From an uncultured Clostridia bacterium (GTDB taxonomy: Bacteria; Bacillota; Clostridia; Christensenellales; UBA1242), in the NCBI GenBank assembly GCA_947089305.1, contig CAMUJQ010000002.1, forward strand, positions 1-40,263: 40,263 bases of DNA, given 5' to 3'. Below, one piece after another: positions 6,349 through 33,748 of this stretch. The translations under genes were made by a program, and so were the position numbers. The notes beneath the pieces are model-generated. The model made no database searches, was not told the origin of the DNA, and saw only the letters and a list, made by a program, of their open reading frames with translations. Position 1 is the stretch's first letter, and every line of letters starts with the position of its first letter.

Positions 6349-7089
6349 CTAAAATTTTAATTGAAATTTAAACCAAAATGATTTCCACATATTTTCAGCA
6401 GTCCCTTTTATTGGGTCATAATGTAAAATAAAATCAATTCTACCAAGACAAATTGTAAATGGTCCATAATATGCTGAATCTGTACTGTTATCTCTGTTAT
6501 CACCCAAAACAAAATATTCGTCGTCTTTTAAAAGTAATGGTTTATCCACAGGTAAATTATGTGCAATTTTATAACTTAATAACTGTTGATATTTTTTTAA
6601 ATTACTCATACCATCACTAACATAATCTTCTTCTAAAATAATAGTTTCTTGAGTATTTCTTTTCTTTAATGTAATTTTATAATCTGTTTGACGAGTTACT
6701 TTACCATTTTCTCCTTCAACGTCTTCAACAACTTTAATAATATCAACTTCGTCTCCACCCGTTGCAATAACTCGTTTAATTAAATTTAGCACATTTCCTT
6801 TTTGGTCTTTGATGTTTTCATCTTTAAACACACCTATTTCACCATGCTTTGGCATAGCATTTTTACAAGCATAAACTATATCCTCTTTATCCGCGCCATA
6901 CATATTAAGAGTAGGTTGCATTGAAGCTCCTGATACTTTATATACATCATATCTAAAATCAAATTGAACAACAAAAAACGTAACCAAAATTGCAATAAAT
7001 ACAAAAACAAATAGAAAAACACTCCCAACGGCGGAAGCCTTCTTTTTTTGCGCCCTTTCATCTACAACTTGATTATTTTTAAATTTCAT
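6349..7089 (-). CDS. lepB: Signal peptidase I (S26 family)
   Basis: N-terminal TM anchor, catalytic Ser box VSGASMQPTL, IKRVIATGGD, and GDNRDNSTDS box E. Confidence 0.88.
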   Translation of the reverse strand: MKFKNNQVVDERAQKKKASAVGSVFLFVFVFIAILVTFFVVQFDFRYDVYKVSGASMQPTLNMYGADKEDIVYACKNAMPKHGEIGVFKDENIKDQKGNVLNLIKRVIATGGDEVDIIKVVEDVEGENGKVTRQTDYKITLKKRNTQETIILEEDYVSDGMSNLKKYQQLLSYKIAHNLPVDKPLLLKDDEYFVLGDNRDNSTDSAYYGPFTICLGRIDFILHYDPIKGTAENMWKSFWFKFQLKF

Positions 7090-24219: not shown

Positions 24220-25098
24220 TTATTTCTCCTTTTTGCTTGTATCTCTAGGTTTAAAAGTCAAAAGCGCATTTTTAGTTAATGTTACTTCACAAATAGTATC
24301 AGTAACCAACTCTCCATCAACTAAAAAATCAAAATTTTCTTCACCCGATGTTAACTTTATCTTTTTAATTTCAAAACAATTAAAGCCCGAACTTTCTTCT
24401 CTTACTAATGTTTTATTCTTAAACTTTAATTTTAAGTCTGACTTTTTAAATTCGATATAGTTTAATTTGTTATCAGTTAAAGACGCTTCATCAATATATT
24501 TTATGTCCCCACAAACATATTTGCCATTACATATTAAAGCCAAATTAATTTCACTTTCACTTGTTTTATTGTCTTCAAGAGTTTTATTAAGTGTAAAGGT
24601 TCTAGCTTTATTTAATATTTTTTGTAGATTATAATTATAAGCTTTGCTGTTTTCGTGTTGTCCTTTTCGCATTTTCAAAAAATAGTCACCAGAAACAACA
24701 ACACTATTTATTGCTTTCATTCCACCAATATTCATTAAATCAACTTTAATAATTTCATTATTTAAAATATCTTTTAATGCTTCAACTGGTTCAAGATGTA
24801 GACCTAAAGATTTTGCAAAATTATTATCTTGCCCTGCTGGTATTATACCAATATTTATTTTATTTAAATTTGTCACGGCATTAACAACATCATGAATTGT
24901 TCCATCGCCCCCAACTACTATAATATTGTCTTCCTTATCTTTTTCTAAGCTAGCAACTATTTCTTTAATTTGTGGACGATCTATACTATAAAAAACCCTA
25001 TAAATAATTTTATTTTTATTTAAATAATCTTTAATTTTAGAAAATGTTTTCTTCGCTGAATTATTTCCTGCACATCTATTTAAAATAAAATTTAACAT
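24220..25098 (-). CDS. Diacylglycerol/lipid kinase family protein (YegS/BmrU/DagK type)
   Basis: IIVVGGDGTIHDVVNAV and GIIPAGQDNNFAKSLG motifs. TTGCAA-N17(TGA)-TACAAT lies only 5 nt upstream of the ATG. Confidence 0.75.
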   Translation of the reverse strand: MLNFILNRCAGNNSAKKTFSKIKDYLNKNKIIYRVFYSIDRPQIKEIVASLEKDKEDNIIVVGGDGTIHDVVNAVTNLNKINIGIIPAGQDNNFAKSLGLHLEPVEALKDILNNEIIKVDLMNIGGMKAINSVVVSGDYFLKMRKGQHENSKAYNYNLQKILNKARTFTLNKTLEDNKTSESEINLALICNGKYVCGDIKYIDEASLTDNKLNYIEFKKSDLKLKFKNKTLVREESSGFNCFEIKKIKLTSGEENFDFLVDGELVTDTICEVTLTKNALLTFKPRDTSKKEK

Positions 25099-25442: not shown

Positions 25443-27710
25443 TTATTTTTTCTTTTCAAAAAGCCTAAACGCTAAAATTGTAGTATCGTCTTTCATTGCA
25501 TCTTTAGAGCGAACTTTACATTCAGTTAAAAGTTGATCAGCCAAACTTTGTGGATTTGTTACATCTAATTTCTCAATAAACTCTTTTAACTCTATGCTGT
25601 TTTTAAATAAATCACTAACTCCATCACTTACAAGAATTACTATATCTCCCATATTTAAAAGTCGTGTTTCAACCTTTGGAATTGATTCATCTACAATACC
25701 AATTGGTAATGCTCCACTATTCAAAATTTCAACCCCGTCTGAGGTTTTCAAAAAACTTTCAGGCGCCCCTAATTTATATAAACTAAAAGCCCGTTTGAAC
25801 AAATCAACAACACATACATCAAGCGCACAAAATTCATCAGTCGATTGCATAACAAGCAATTTGTTAATAGATTGATAAATTTGCTCTTTATCAAATTCTG
25901 CTCTATAAAAATTTTCTACAAGAGTTAAAGCTAAATTACTAATTTCATTTGCACGTTCTCCGCTCCCCATTCCATCGCACAATGCAAATAACGCATTTTC
26001 ATCTCCCATTTTTGAAAAACTATAAGTGTCTCCACTTTCACTTGTTTCAAGTTTAGACATACTAGCAACGCCAAATACAACATCACAAAGAGGTGAATCA
26101 ATTACCGTATATGTTTTATCATCAACAATGCTTGCATTAACTGGCCTTTTTAAAACACTGCCTACAACCTCGTTTAATATATCTAATATATTCACATAAC
26201 TTTCTTTAAAATTTATAGTAAAAATATATCTTCCATTTTCTTCAACACAAAAAACTTTAATAGGCAATAAATTTTTATAAATTAAAAGTTTTTCCACTTC
26301 ATCAGCTAGATGAGTGTTAAAAATAGTTTTTTCACTAACTGCTAAGCTTAATTTAGCTAACTGTTCATTTACACAATCAAGTTGCTTTGTTGCTATCAAA
26401 GTTCCTTCATTGGCCCCATTTTGTAAAACATTAAACTTTAAAAATTTTTGACACATGTTATTTACTTCATTAAGTAATACAGGAATGTTTTTACAGCGTT
26501 CAGTTAAAAACGGTGGAATATCTAAAATTGTTATTTTACCTCTTACTAATCCATTTGCAAAAAAGTTTGTAATTGCAGTTTTAGTATCATTATGTAATGC
26601 ATGACACATTGAATAATTAGGACACTTTTTACAAATTAAATTAATTAATTCATTTGATAAAAGTTCTTTTCCATCCTCAATTGATATTTGTTGTTTAATA
26701 TTCTTTTTTAACACATTCGATACAAGGGAAATAACAATGCCCGTATTTTCAATCTTTTGTTTTAAACTAGCTTTTGTGTAACTAAGTAAAGTTGGAGTAT
26801 AACTTTTGTATCCTTCAAAGAAATTATTAAGTTCGCTAACAAAAGTTTTTGTTGTTAACATAAATAAAACCATCGCAACAACAAAAGCAATTCCCTCAAA
26901 TAAAATTGTTTGGTAGTTATCTAAAAAATAAATACTTGATGAAAAACTAATTACAGCTCCTAAAATTGTTAACCACTTCCCAGATTTTTTAAATACTAAA
27001 GTTATTAAATTTAGTAAAACAAATGGAACAAAACAAACTGCATTTGCGCCACCAATTAAATAACCTAAAGAAATAGACAAAGTAATAAGTAAACTAGTGC
27101 TACTTGACAATGCAAATGCTATTAAAATAATTAAATAGTAACTTACTATGCTTCCAAAAGGAAAACTGAAAAAATGAATATTTTTTATACCACTTGCAAA
27201 AACCATTACAAAAACTAACGCACTTAATATTTCATCTGTATTTAATTTTAAACTTACTTTTCTATTTAAAGAAGCAACAACAAAATTAAATATAACATTT
27301 AAAAATACTAAAGATAGCCCCAAATTAAGCAAAATAAATAATGCATTCATTGTATTAAATTCCACTACAAAAAATGGCACTAAAGAAATTGCTAATACAA
27401 TATTTAAAACCAATTTAGTGTAATTATGTTTTGTTTGCTTGTGAACAATATAAGTAATAATATATGCAACGCAAGAAATAGCATAAAGACAAACAGATAT
27501 TAAATCATTCCCACTTAAAAAGGAGGCTAAAACAAACAATGGAGATAAAATAAAAGCATTTTGTCCGCCAGCTAATATTGCAACAAAAAATGCTGCAGAA
27601 TAAAACCCACTTACATTAATTGTTCTTGCTTTAAATAGGCAATAGAACATTATAAAAAACACTAAATATTTAAAAATTTGGTTTAAGGCTTTTAAATTTT
27701 TCTTTTTCAT
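25443..27710 (-). CDS. spoIIE: Stage II sporulation protein E-like membrane PP2C phosphatase
   Basis: The ~300-aa N-terminal domain has ~10 TM segments. It has a central regulatory region and a C-terminal PP2C domain (GDTYSF...ALCDGMGSGERA...SDGV...DDTT). Confidence 0.75.
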   Translation of the reverse strand: MKKKNLKALNQIFKYLVFFIMFYCLFKARTINVSGFYSAAFFVAILAGGQNAFILSPLFVLASFLSGNDLISVCLYAISCVAYIITYIVHKQTKHNYTKLVLNIVLAISLVPFFVVEFNTMNALFILLNLGLSLVFLNVIFNFVVASLNRKVSLKLNTDEILSALVFVMVFASGIKNIHFFSFPFGSIVSYYLIILIAFALSSSTSLLITLSISLGYLIGGANAVCFVPFVLLNLITLVFKKSGKWLTILGAVISFSSSIYFLDNYQTILFEGIAFVVAMVLFMLTTKTFVSELNNFFEGYKSYTPTLLSYTKASLKQKIENTGIVISLVSNVLKKNIKQQISIEDGKELLSNELINLICKKCPNYSMCHALHNDTKTAITNFFANGLVRGKITILDIPPFLTERCKNIPVLLNEVNNMCQKFLKFNVLQNGANEGTLIATKQLDCVNEQLAKLSLAVSEKTIFNTHLADEVEKLLIYKNLLPIKVFCVEENGRYIFTINFKESYVNILDILNEVVGSVLKRPVNASIVDDKTYTVIDSPLCDVVFGVASMSKLETSESGDTYSFSKMGDENALFALCDGMGSGERANEISNLALTLVENFYRAEFDKEQIYQSINKLLVMQSTDEFCALDVCVVDLFKRAFSLYKLGAPESFLKTSDGVEILNSGALPIGIVDESIPKVETRLLNMGDIVILVSDGVSDLFKNSIELKEFIEKLDVTNPQSLADQLLTECKVRSKDAMKDDTTILAFRLFEKKK

Positions 27711-31513: not shown

Positions 31514-31548
31514 TAAAAAAATTCTACAAATTAATGTAGAATTTTTTT
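31514..31548. terminator. Bidirectional terminator between gltX and the convergent surface-protein gene
   Basis: A7-ATTCTACA-AATTAA-TGTAGAAT-T7. Confidence 0.65.
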
Positions 31549-31552
31549 ATAA

Positions 31553-32851
31553 CTAAATGCAAAAACCAAAAGCTATGCCATGCTCAAGTGCAGGACCATA
31601 AGCCTCGTAAAGGCATCCTGAAACATAAAAATAATAGTAATCGGATTGTGGTGCAGTTGAACGAAGCCACCATGCTTTAACATTTCCTGTTCCATTAGCA
31701 AGTTTACGAACAAGGGCAGGAATGCTTGTATTATAAGCAGTATCACCAACTAAATTTGTAAAATATTCATAACGAGCACCTTCATATATAGTTACATTAA
31801 TTTTAACCATGTCTGTAATACTATTGTCACTACAAAATGCTCTTAATTCATTTTCTGCAAATATCTCAGATGCAGAAAATAGCCAAAGCTTATCCTGAGA
31901 AGTTACCCTATCTGTATTAACTCTTTTACCTGTTGTTGAAACTTTATTTACTGACTTAATAATTTTTTGTAAATCGCTTGGAATTTTATTATAATAATCA
32001 ACCATTGTAATTTTTCTAGCATTTGACTCAGTCCACCCACCTGTATTATCATTTTGAGTATCAATTAAAGGTTGGGCTGTTAAATGCTTCATACCAATAC
32101 TGATCTTTGCTTTGCCTGTACCGTCTGAAAGGTCATCATGATTAAAACCTAAAATAACAAATGTTAAAGTTTCGCCATCTGTAAGAGTTACATCTTTTTC
32201 ATTACCTACAGCATAATATTCTTTTGCAAGATTTTGTTGTGCGATATAATCTATAGCCTCCCATTCTGCATCGGCAAAAGGTTTATCAAACTGAAATAAA
32301 GAAATCAACCAATTTATTGTGCCTGTGCAAATAGCATTTTGTTGCTTATTTTCTACACTTAAACGAATATATATTGTCCCTTCTGATTGTTCTAAAACTT
32401 GTAAATGTGAGTAATCTTCTACAAAATTTACACCATCATTTGAATAAGTAAATTTTATATTTGTATCATCATTATCATTATCTTGATAAACTGGTTTACA
32501 ATAATAATCAAAAACATTTGTGTTTGTAAAAGTATATTTGAATATTACAAATAAATTATCTTTTGTTAATTCTATATCTCCATTTGGTTGCAAGCTTAAA
32601 TTGCTGCTTTCTAGGTCTATTGTAGTTTGTCCTGAAGAATTTGTCATATCAATTTCTTGCCCGTTACCTATTCTATAACTGGCTTTTGCCGTTCCTTGTA
32701 TACCTTGTGTTACATTATACTGCACTCTTATGCTTGAATTAAAATTTTGCACATTAAGTGCTAGCACAATAACTGCAGTTAGTGAAGCTACTAGCAAAAC
32801 TGCTAAAATTATGTAACTTGTTATTATTATTTTCTTTTTTACTATAGACAT
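31553..32851 (-). CDS. Membrane-anchored extracellular protein of unknown function
   Basis: N-terminal signal anchor (IIITSYIILAVLLVASLTAVIVLAL), a beta-rich N-terminal region, and a C-terminal region with a WWLRS motif. AAGGAG SD. Confidence 0.65.
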   Translation of the reverse strand: MSIVKKKIIITSYIILAVLLVASLTAVIVLALNVQNFNSSIRVQYNVTQGIQGTAKASYRIGNGQEIDMTNSSGQTTIDLESSNLSLQPNGDIELTKDNLFVIFKYTFTNTNVFDYYCKPVYQDNDNDDTNIKFTYSNDGVNFVEDYSHLQVLEQSEGTIYIRLSVENKQQNAICTGTINWLISLFQFDKPFADAEWEAIDYIAQQNLAKEYYAVGNEKDVTLTDGETLTFVILGFNHDDLSDGTGKAKISIGMKHLTAQPLIDTQNDNTGGWTESNARKITMVDYYNKIPSDLQKIIKSVNKVSTTGKRVNTDRVTSQDKLWLFSASEIFAENELRAFCSDNSITDMVKINVTIYEGARYEYFTNLVGDTAYNTSIPALVRKLANGTGNVKAWWLRSTAPQSDYYYFYVSGCLYEAYGPALEHGIAFGFCI

Positions 32852-32869
32852 TTTTCTTCTCCTTTTTAC

Positions 32870-32901
32870 ATTTTAACCTACCCCCCCCCCTACTCCGTCA
32901 A
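32870..32901 (-). promoter_or_regulatory. Promoter TTGACG-N20-TAAAAT whose spacer contains a G10 tract
   Basis: Minus strand: TTGACG (32896-32901), GAGTA-G10-TAGGT, TAAAAT (32870-32875), then GTAAAAAGGAGAAGAAAA-ATG. Confidence 0.5.
32881..32890. repeat. Homopolymeric C10/G10 tract
   Basis: Ten consecutive C on the plus strand, flanked by A and T. I saw no other G/C homopolymer of this length anywhere in the window. Confidence 0.95.
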
Positions 32902-32912
32902 GCAAATAACAA

Positions 32913-32940
32913 AAAAAACAACTCATAAAGGTTGTTTTTT
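32913..32940 (-). terminator. Weak A/U-rich terminator after the 269-aa gene
   Basis: Minus strand: AAAAAACAAC-CTTTATGA-GTTGTTTTTT. It overlaps the stop codon at 32939-32941. Confidence 0.4.
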
Positions 32941-33748
32941 ATGCTTTATTAAATAACAAACTATACATCATATAACCGTCAAGGCCTTGAGTTTTTCCTT
33001 CATCTAAAACAAATTCAATGTAACTTCCTGCTGCAACCGTTTCAAAAGTGTAGTTAATTGAAAACTTATATGTATAATCTTTTTTATTTTCAAAATAAAA
33101 ACTATCAGTTGAATATATTTCTTTTTCTTGATTTTTTTGCGCATCATATAAATTTATTTTATATGTACAGAGCCCTCTTCCACTTGTTCTAAGTTTAAAA
33201 TACATGTTTTTAAGTTCAAGCTCACTAAACGATTCTTTAAAAATAAATTTAATTGTTATATATTTTTTTATGTCTGAAGAATTAACTTTTTTATTTTCAA
33301 ACTTAGACAAACTCATTTCAGGGTCTAGTTTGCTTCCACTTTCTCCCGAATCATTTTCATAATTATAGAATACTTCAACATTATTCATAAATATCTTTGT
33401 TGGCTCAAGCTTAATAGTTGCTAAATAAATCCAACTTATAATTGCACCAACTATAGCAATTGAGAAAAAACAAATTGCAAAGAGTGCTATTCTTTTATAA
33501 TCAATATTTTTAGGAACACCTAAATCGTGTCTCTTTTTAGCTCTTTTATATTTTCTAAATTCACGATTAGACATTTCCTCAAGGGGTTTTTTAGGTTTAT
33601 AAGTAAACATGTTTTCAATTTTTTGATTTAATTGTTCAGCTTCTGCTAAAATGTTCGGATTAGTTAAAAGCATGTGCATCTTTTTATTTTCTATATTTTT
33701 AATAATTACCTTATCAAACTTTGGCAACTCTTTTTTAATTTCGCCCAC
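32939..33748 (-). CDS. Single-pass membrane protein of unknown function (269 aa)
   Basis: Basic cytoplasmic N-terminus, TM segment (IALFAICFFSIAIVGAIISWIYL), beta-rich C-terminal ectodomain. GTG start behind AAAGGAGG. Confidence 0.6.
   Translation of the reverse strand: MGEIKKELPKFDKVIIKNIENKKMHMLLTNPNILAEAEQLNQKIENMFTYKPKKPLEEMSNREFRKYKRAKKRHDLGVPKNIDYKRIALFAICFFSIAIVGAIISWIYLATIKLEPTKIFMNNVEVFYNYENDSGESGSKLDPEMSLSKFENKKVNSSDIKKYITIKFIFKESFSELELKNMYFKLRTSGRGLCTYKINLYDAQKNQEKEIYSTDSFYFENKKDYTYKFSINYTFETVAAGSYIEFVLDEGKTQGLDGYMMYSLLFNKA

Follow-up and report, generated by a model that had tools for sequence, protein, structure and literature searches.

The stretch of DNA analysed here (the window, 40,263 nt, 29% GC) carries argS, typA/bipA, dnaB, gltX, spoIIE and secA, assigned by matching ORF positions to annotated related loci, together with the 5′ part of a 23S rRNA gene on the minus strand (1–838), which runs off the window edge and is the sole Rfam match in the window. 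The stop codons TAA, TAG and TGA are all in use, indicating the standard code, and the presence of SpoIIE indicates an endospore-forming low-GC Firmicute. Next to gltX, and convergent with it, lies a minus-strand gene for a 432-aa protein with a DUF6273 domain, preceded by an uninterrupted run of ten G residues (G10) between a -35-like and a -10-like hexamer. The features of this locus are listed below; L001, L002, L003, L005 and L023 are contigs of the same species from other samples.

32939–33748, minus strand: gene for a 269-aa membrane protein, with its stop codon TAA at 32941–32939; it adjoins dnaB in related species
32940–32911, minus strand: hairpin AAAAAACAAC-cttatga-loop-GTTGTTTTTT followed by a T-run; it folds, with a centroid of -12 kcal/mol
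32901–32896, minus strand: -35-like hexamer TTGACG, 5/6 matches to TTGACA; TTGAAG in L001
32890–32881, minus strand: G10, GGGGGGGGGG, an uninterrupted run in the promoter spacer at which slippage is proposed; the plus strand reads C10
32880–32877, minus strand: -16 region, TAGG in the window and TATG in L001, L002, L003, L005 and L023
32880–32875, minus strand: alternative -10-like hexamer overlapping TAAAAT; TATGTT in every assembly except the window, which has TAGGTT
32875–32870, minus strand: -10 hexamer TAAAAT, 5/6 matches, 20 nt 3′ of TTGACG at G10
32864–32859, minus strand: Shine-Dalgarno sequence AAGGAG, 7 nt ahead of the ATG at 32851–32849
31553–32851, minus strand: controlled gene, 432 aa, with an N-terminal hydrophobic helix (residues 2–34) and a C-terminal DUF6273 domain (about residues 190–432)
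31515–31548, no strand assigned: bidirectional terminator-like hairpin common to the convergent DUF6273 gene and gltX

The DUF6273 domain was recognized by a Pfam match (E = 1e-9) and modelled by AlphaFold2 with a pLDDT of about 90 for residues 190–432, whereas the roughly 150 residues between the helix and the domain (35–185) have no homologues and no confident structure. A Foldseek search of BFVD with the model returned DUF6273 proteins and phage tail-collar fibres (E = 5e-15). DUF6273 has been described as a C-type-lectin-like domain that is hypermutated by diversity-generating retroelements (DGRs) in phage receptor-binding proteins (PMC10743442); a fold search of the model against the PDB gave no significant match, so that the C-type-lectin fold of the literature was not confirmed here. 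The gene was considered as a DGR target and rejected: among the largest repeat families and the inverted pairs listed for the 40-kb stretch, none of at least 30 nt matched the gene beyond low-identity chance similarity, and no template/variable repeat pair appeared. The hydrophobic helix, the DUF6273 domain, its tail-fibre-like fold and the fast evolution described below agree with the membrane-anchored, surface-type product that had been proposed for this gene in an earlier note on the same DNA.

To place the gene in its genomic context, we compared the locus with three related species found through orthologues of the 269-aa protein (57–62% identity). All three have dnaB and the 269-aa gene followed directly by convergent gltX, with the DUF6273 gene absent. 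The promoter, the gene and one terminator thus form a lineage-specific insertion, of which the 269-aa gene, whose protein has no Pfam match, marks the boundary, and the comparison shows the DUF6273 gene to be, as judged from synteny, recently acquired. It also evolves quickly. Between the window and L005 (1832–3130), the DUF6273 gene is 1.85% divergent and its neighbours 0–0.6%, with 17 amino-acid differences in the DUF6273 protein and 0–3 per flanking gene. Non-synonymous differences (pN) number 17 of 1,026 sites in the DUF6273 gene and 8 of 4,361 in the flanking genes, an approximately 9-fold faster rate (Fisher p = 1e-7), and pN/pS is 0.65 for the DUF6273 gene against 0.18 for the flanking genes pooled. 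Several of the changes in the domain cluster, at codons 308–356 and 419–424. Such a profile is that predicted for an accessory, exposed, fast-evolving protein. In the same contig, gltX (L005 3170–4672) has an internal stop and is called at 500 aa, as against 551 aa in the window; either the sequence is wrong at this point or an essential gene has become a pseudogene. L023 carries an 87-nt in-frame deletion in the N-terminal region of the DUF6273 gene (at its position 316; window 32571–32657) and a further indel that breaks the frame; the contig may be of low quality or the gene copy may be decaying.

Read on the minus strand (32960–32840), the region upstream of the gene is laid out as gttatttgc-TTGACG-gagta-G10-taggt-TAAAAT-gtaaa-AAGGAG-aagaaaa-ATG, and this reading bore out every position reported in the earlier note, together with its 20-nt spacer. 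Because an in-frame TAA (32875–32873) lies between the tract and the ATG, the G10 tract is noncoding. The C10 of the plus strand is the only G/C run of at least 6 nt in the window, the next longest being 5, and a first-order Markov model predicts 8e-4 runs of ten or more C; the view that this is the sole long G/C homopolymer of the window and hardly a product of chance is upheld by both figures. Approximately 48 kb of related-species and strain loci (L024, L026–L030) likewise contained no G/C run of at least 6 nt. Runs of A/T of at least 9 nt were found once against about 20.6 expected, an approximately 20-fold depletion (first-order Markov, whole window, 71% A+T), which implies general selection against slippage-prone runs. 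Since long homopolymers are avoided in this DNA, the G10 stands out all the more. A family-wide homopolymer was also considered and rejected, as the closest DUF6273 homologues (L031–L039) have no G/C runs of at least 6 nt and no A/T runs of at least 10 nt anywhere, including upstream. Five of the seven Logan contigs with the 659-aa DUF6273 homologue P0004 (L032–L038) end 448 nt upstream of the gene, where there is no homopolymer; the common endpoint suggests a repeat or an assembly breakpoint.

Poly-G is a known artefact of Illumina two-colour sequencing, and the tract could in principle reflect such read errors or a chimeric join. We therefore compared it across contigs of the same species from five other samples, which were recovered through exact-protein look-ups:

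L001, ENA ERZ13657770: 99.96% identical to the window, spans the region, G10, coverage 3.4x
L005, JGI 3300006217: 99.3% identical to the window, spans the region, G10
L002, ERZ13657780: contig starts inside the tract, at 'GGtatgtt'
L003, Logan SRR14038243: contig starts inside the tract, at 'GGtatgtt'
L023, JGI 3300006168: G15 after non-homologous GC-rich junk, with further errors in the contig

At the tract, three of the six contigs thus break off or lose quality (L002 and L003 at 'GG', L023 with G15 and junk), as an artefact might produce, but the two broken contigs have a coverage of only 3–5x. An identical G10, flanked on either side by matching sequence, recurs in three independent assemblies of differing sample and pipeline (L001, L005 and the window), and the tract is therefore not an artefact. 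The synteny on either side agrees with that of the related species, which argues against a chimeric join. Taken together, these observations make a sequencing or assembly error extremely improbable, and we conclude that G10 is a genuine, non-random element in the predicted promoter spacer of a lineage-specific surface-protein gene.

At the consensus level, the tract measured G10 in 3/3 resolved assemblies. In the comparison of tract lengths proposed in the earlier note, the tract thus recurs in L001 and L005, and no variation in its length was seen among the three resolved assemblies. The G15 of L023 was discarded as a length variant because of the adjoining GC-rich junk and the other errors of the contig. 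The breaks in L002 and L003 were discarded as signs of length heterogeneity, lying only two G residues into the tract in contigs of low coverage; such breaks are uninformative on this point, because length variants branch an assembly graph only if a k-mer spans the whole tract. The partner contig, L026, stops well short of the tract. When genome contigs were searched with DnaB and with the DUF6273 protein, no close relative emerged, the only match being DnaB at approximately 40% identity from unrelated phyla, and searches of metagenome contigs (by DNA pattern and protein) and of viral contigs gave no matches. Another contig from the sample of L023, L024 (JGI 3300006168), matches the window across dnaB and the greater part of the 269-aa gene, and from about its position 826 (window approximately 33143) diverges inside that gene into an HD_3-domain gene; either the assembly is chimeric or the strain is rearranged.

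To compare the spacer with those of other promoters in the window, we searched the DNA ahead of 15 genes for pairs of -35 and -10 boxes separated by 14–21 nt. TTGACG/TAAAAT was the sole hexamer pair upstream of the DUF6273 gene, and a separate scan restricted to spacers of 16–18 nt found no promoter there. The earlier statement that only one promoter-like sequence is present therefore stands for hexamer pairs but not for the -10 region, where a second, overlapping -10-like hexamer lies at 32880–32875. Seven other candidates in the window scored at least 10: TTGACA-17-TACAAT, TTGACA-17-TAAAAT (equal in score to a 20-nt alternative that shares its -35 box), TTTACA-17-TGgTATAAT, TTGCAA-17-TGaTACAAT, TTGACT-18-TGaTACAAT, TTGTAA-18-TGgTATATT and TTTAGA-14-TGgTATAAT. 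Spacers of 17–18 nt occur in 6/7 of these, four of the six with a TGn-extended -10, from which it follows that the organism uses canonical sigma-A promoters. With five of six matches in each box, the predicted DUF6273 promoter is an outlier in spacing alone, and the 17–18 nt norm of the other strong promoters agrees with the earlier description of its 20-nt spacer as poor. Hexamers with at least five matches to TTGACA occupy 0.73% of positions, giving a chance of approximately 2–6% of finding such a -35 box within slippage reach of TAAAAT (5.7% over the 8 positions corresponding to 14–21 nt). A Sigma-B-like promoter, with GGGTAT as -10, was rejected: such promoters need a -35/-10 distance of 12–15 nt, and the nearest GTT-rich -35 candidate found by eye, GTTATT (3/6), lies 21 nt off. 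Transcription from the predicted start would give a leader just 12–13 nt or so in length, with the Shine-Dalgarno sequence at its beginning.

The distance from TTGACG to each of the two -10-like hexamers was calculated for tract lengths from G7 to G12:

G7: 17 nt to TAAAAT, 12 nt to TATGTT
G8: 18 nt to TAAAAT, 13 nt to TATGTT
G9: 19 nt to TAAAAT, 14 nt to TATGTT
G10: 20 nt to TAAAAT, 15 nt to TATGTT
G11: 21 nt to TAAAAT, 16 nt to TATGTT
G12: 22 nt to TAAAAT, 17 nt to TATGTT

On this arithmetic, the earlier claim that the loss of two or three G residues restores a 17–18 nt spacer is correct (18 nt at G8 and 17 nt at G7, to TAAAAT), and G10 is predicted to be the worst-aligned length for both -10 boxes.

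Whether these boxes serve a promoter of their own depends in part on transcription from upstream. The dnaB, 269-aa and DUF6273 genes share one orientation, and the three could be co-transcribed by read-through, in which case the G-run would be an intercistronic mRNA element and not part of a promoter. The hairpin between the 269-aa gene and the tract contains 2 G-C pairs only and did not meet the G-C-rich terminator criteria of the tool used, and the intergenic region as a whole folds no more stably than shuffled sequence (z = -0.62). On the other side, a hairpin followed by T8–T9 is a normal terminator for so AT-rich a genome, an equivalent terminator follows the 269-aa gene in related species, and the cassette was inserted later and brings its own -35 box, -10 box and Shine-Dalgarno sequence; nor did positions 32700–33100 contain an Rfam match, even at E ≤ 1, and a known structured RNA leader such as a riboswitch or T-box was rejected on this result. 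Across assemblies, the hairpin varies by a substitution in the loop in L005 and by a T-run of T8 or T9. We consider read-through very unlikely as the explanation of the tract, and the hairpin at 32940–32911 is the probable intrinsic terminator of the 269-aa gene, isolating the downstream promoter. The upstream terminator noted earlier at 32913–32940 is thus confirmed as a hairpin that folds and carries a T-run, but with its 2 G-C pairs it falls short of the usual scan criteria.

Comparison of the contigs further revealed that the bases around the tract differ between strains. Position 32878 is polymorphic (G/T): the window allele, TAGG, is without the TG of an extended -10, and 5/6 assemblies carry T, which gives TATGtTAAAAT; with five contigs in agreement, this polymorphism is probably real. 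TRTGn is the Gram-positive extended -10 motif, and promoters that carry it can work with a poor -35 box. In those five assemblies, TATGtTAAAAT may accordingly be active independently of the -35 box, and, since an extended -10 may act without one, changes in the tract may adjust the level of expression instead of turning it ON and OFF. L001 differs from the window by 3 mismatches over 6970 nt, all in this promoter, at 32897 (in the -35 box, TTGACG to TTGAAG), 32893 (in the spacer) and 32878 (the -16 TG); three random differences would all lie this close to the tract (12 nt or less) with a probability of about 1e-7. In L002 and L003, 32878 is the sole difference from the window. The cluster seen with L001 means either that the promoter is where near-clonal strains differ or that two of the changes are L001-specific, homopolymer-induced errors in a 3.4x contig. 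Promoter-located differences of this kind fit selection on expression level or tract-associated mutagenesis.

The cassette could also carry the tract as a neutral by-product, a junction or relic of its horizontal acquisition, with TATGtTAAAAT driving the gene and TTGACG a chance match. The lineage-specific insertion of the gene, promoter and terminator accords with such an origin, as does the frequency of extended -10 promoters in the organism, and a chance of about 6% for a 5/6 -35-like hexamer within 8 positions is not negligible. However, where even A/T runs are purged, as in this genome of 29% GC, an idle G10 should have been interrupted or shortened, the tract is uninterrupted in all assemblies although surrounding bases vary, and the window allele, without its TG, would be left without a good promoter. 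On balance, we hold a neutral origin to be rather unlikely.

The sequence features of a contingency switch are present at the locus: an uninterrupted run of at least 8 nt, between -35-like and -10-like hexamers, ahead of a surface-protein gene. We therefore propose that the G tract is slippage-prone and, within the spacer of a sigma-A promoter, serves as a contingency switch of surface-protein expression, a proposal for and against which we judge the case to be evenly poised. At G10, the -35 box would be out of register, 2–3 bp beyond the 17–18 bp optimum, and the promoter weak; residual activity would come from the TATG-extended -10, and the TAGG allele of the window would be weaker still. 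Slipped-strand mispairing during replication would add or remove G residues. Loss to G8 or G7 would place TTGACG 18 or 17 bp from TAAAAT and yield a strong promoter, and with a tract grown to G11 or G12 the same -35 box would stand 16 or 17 bp from the overlapping TATGTT. The outcome would be heritable, reversible sub-populations with differing amounts of the membrane-anchored DUF6273 protein. We infer slippage in the organism, the use of both boxes by RNA polymerase and the effect of tract length on expression from the arrangement of the promoter.

Several observations temper the proposal of a contingency switch. Classical contingency loci are usually one step from ON, whereas G10 would have to lose two residues to reach an 18-nt spacer; in most strains, the extended -10 could make the -35 spacing nearly irrelevant; the predicted leader is very short; the closest DUF6273 homologues lack an upstream homopolymer; and the substitutions beside the tract in the 3.4x contig L001 could be homopolymer-induced sequencing errors. 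The tract, moreover, is uniform. Its length should alter far more quickly than point differences build up (0.7% between L005 and the window), and the recurrence of G10 therefore implies that this is the favoured state in nature, which suits a contingency gene that is OFF most of the time and a fixed architectural role equally well. The latter would mean that G10 is kept by selection in a deliberately poor 20-bp promoter that is constitutively weak or driven by an activator or by DNA distortion, so that regulation is physiological and not stochastic, as in Bordetella fim (BvgA) or in MerR-type long-spacer promoters. Uniformity across strains suits selection for one length, and a 20-nt spacer is typical of activator-dependent promoters. 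A promoter of the MerR type has a 19–20 bp spacer with a dyad-symmetric operator and an adjacent merR-family gene, and was rejected here: the 20-bp gagta-G10-taggt spacer contains no dyad symmetry or inverted repeat (a G10 run cannot be palindromic), and there is no merR-family neighbour. More generally, no regulator gene is adjacent, the neighbours being the 269-aa protein and gltX, and three sequences are too few to establish fixation. A shared modal length is also found in proven phase-variable poly-G promoters, the tprL poly-G having the same modal length across Treponema pallidum strains and yet varying within strains (PMC7864442). We regard a fixed element as unlikely, though an alternative to be taken seriously.

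The contingency switch may be extended to a two-way, three-state device, with two overlapping -10 boxes and hypermutable flanks, that controls a host-encoded lectin domain of the phage receptor-binding type. Under this extension, neither box (they lie 5 bp apart) would be in register at G9–G10, G7–G8 would engage TAAAAT and G11–G12 would engage TATGTT; the tract would render its flanks hypermutable, and substitutions within the -35 box and at the -16 TG would provide slower tuning. We view this extended version as a speculative and quite improbable elaboration.

Promoter-spacer phase variation is documented mainly in Neisseria, Haemophilus, Mycoplasma, Bordetella and Treponema. In Mycoplasma hyorhinis vlp and Haemophilus influenzae hifA/B, poly-A and TA repeats, respectively, act as spacer-length switches for surface or fimbrial genes; those are poly-A or TA repeats in multi-gene families, whereas the present cassette is single-copy in the available sequence. 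In Bordetella pertussis fim2/fim3, a C-stretch upstream of the -10 sets by its length the register of the BvgA activator site. The long C/G run upstream of a -10 box is common to both, but fim2/fim3 have the BvgA site as an upstream element, and here no activator site or regulator gene is evident. Neisseria meningitidis porA has poly-G in its -35/-10 spacer, and expression of this outer-surface protein is graded by tract length; opc of the same species has a poly-C promoter-spacer switch (reference cited in PMC5084427), likewise with graded expression. The present locus resembles porA and opc in its G/C homopolymer within the -35/-10 spacer of a surface-protein gene, and differs in that Neisseria is Gram-negative, with many phase-variable genes and tract lengths that vary between strains, whereas G10 was found here in 3/3.

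A close parallel is provided by T. pallidum TP0126, an OmpW homologue with poly-G between -35 and -10 and optimal transcription at 17-nt spacing; T. pallidum poly-G tracts measure approximately 7–12 nt, and longer ones (9–10 G or more) lower expression (PMC7864442). Both loci have a homopolymeric G tract in the -35/-10 spacer of a surface-protein gene promoter. T. pallidum, however, is a spirochaete pathogen with many tracts, in which length heterogeneity and reporter effects have been demonstrated, whereas our proposal is built from sequence features; a TRTG-extended -10, a second overlapping -10-like box and a SpoIIE-encoding low-GC Firmicute host set the present locus apart. Among Firmicutes, a one-nucleotide indel in an intergenic homopolymer is reported to be tied to the Spy1336/R28 virulence axis and its transcript levels in Streptococcus pyogenes M28 (PMC7098570). 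Spy1336/R28–Spy1337 offers a Firmicute precedent, but in a divergent intergenic region and not in a defined -35/-10 spacer. To our knowledge, promoter-spacer poly-G switches are essentially undescribed in spore-forming Firmicutes. The locus is thus a plausible candidate for a known mechanism in an unusual host group, the mechanism itself not being new. If the contingency switch is real, poly-G phase variation in promoter spacers would extend to an uncultured endospore-forming low-GC Firmicute and would be tied to a chromosomal DUF6273 protein, of a family otherwise known from phage receptor-binding proteins and DGR targets, suggesting that the same pressure for variation acts on cell-surface copies of DUF6273. 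Existing metagenomic reads give the tract length directly, which makes the locus a cheap test case.

Two further features of the window were observed. Strong TGn-extended -10 boxes lie 5–8 nt before the predicted starts of three minus-strand genes (24220–25098, 25443–27710 and 6349–7089), SpoIIE included, and these short -10-to-start distances suggest that leaderless mRNAs may be common in the organism. Two adjacent plus-strand paralogues, at 14841–15545 and 15560–16291, share repeats of 62 and 71 nt (D2 and D4) with 73–77% identity, 719 nt apart, and represent a tandem gene duplication.
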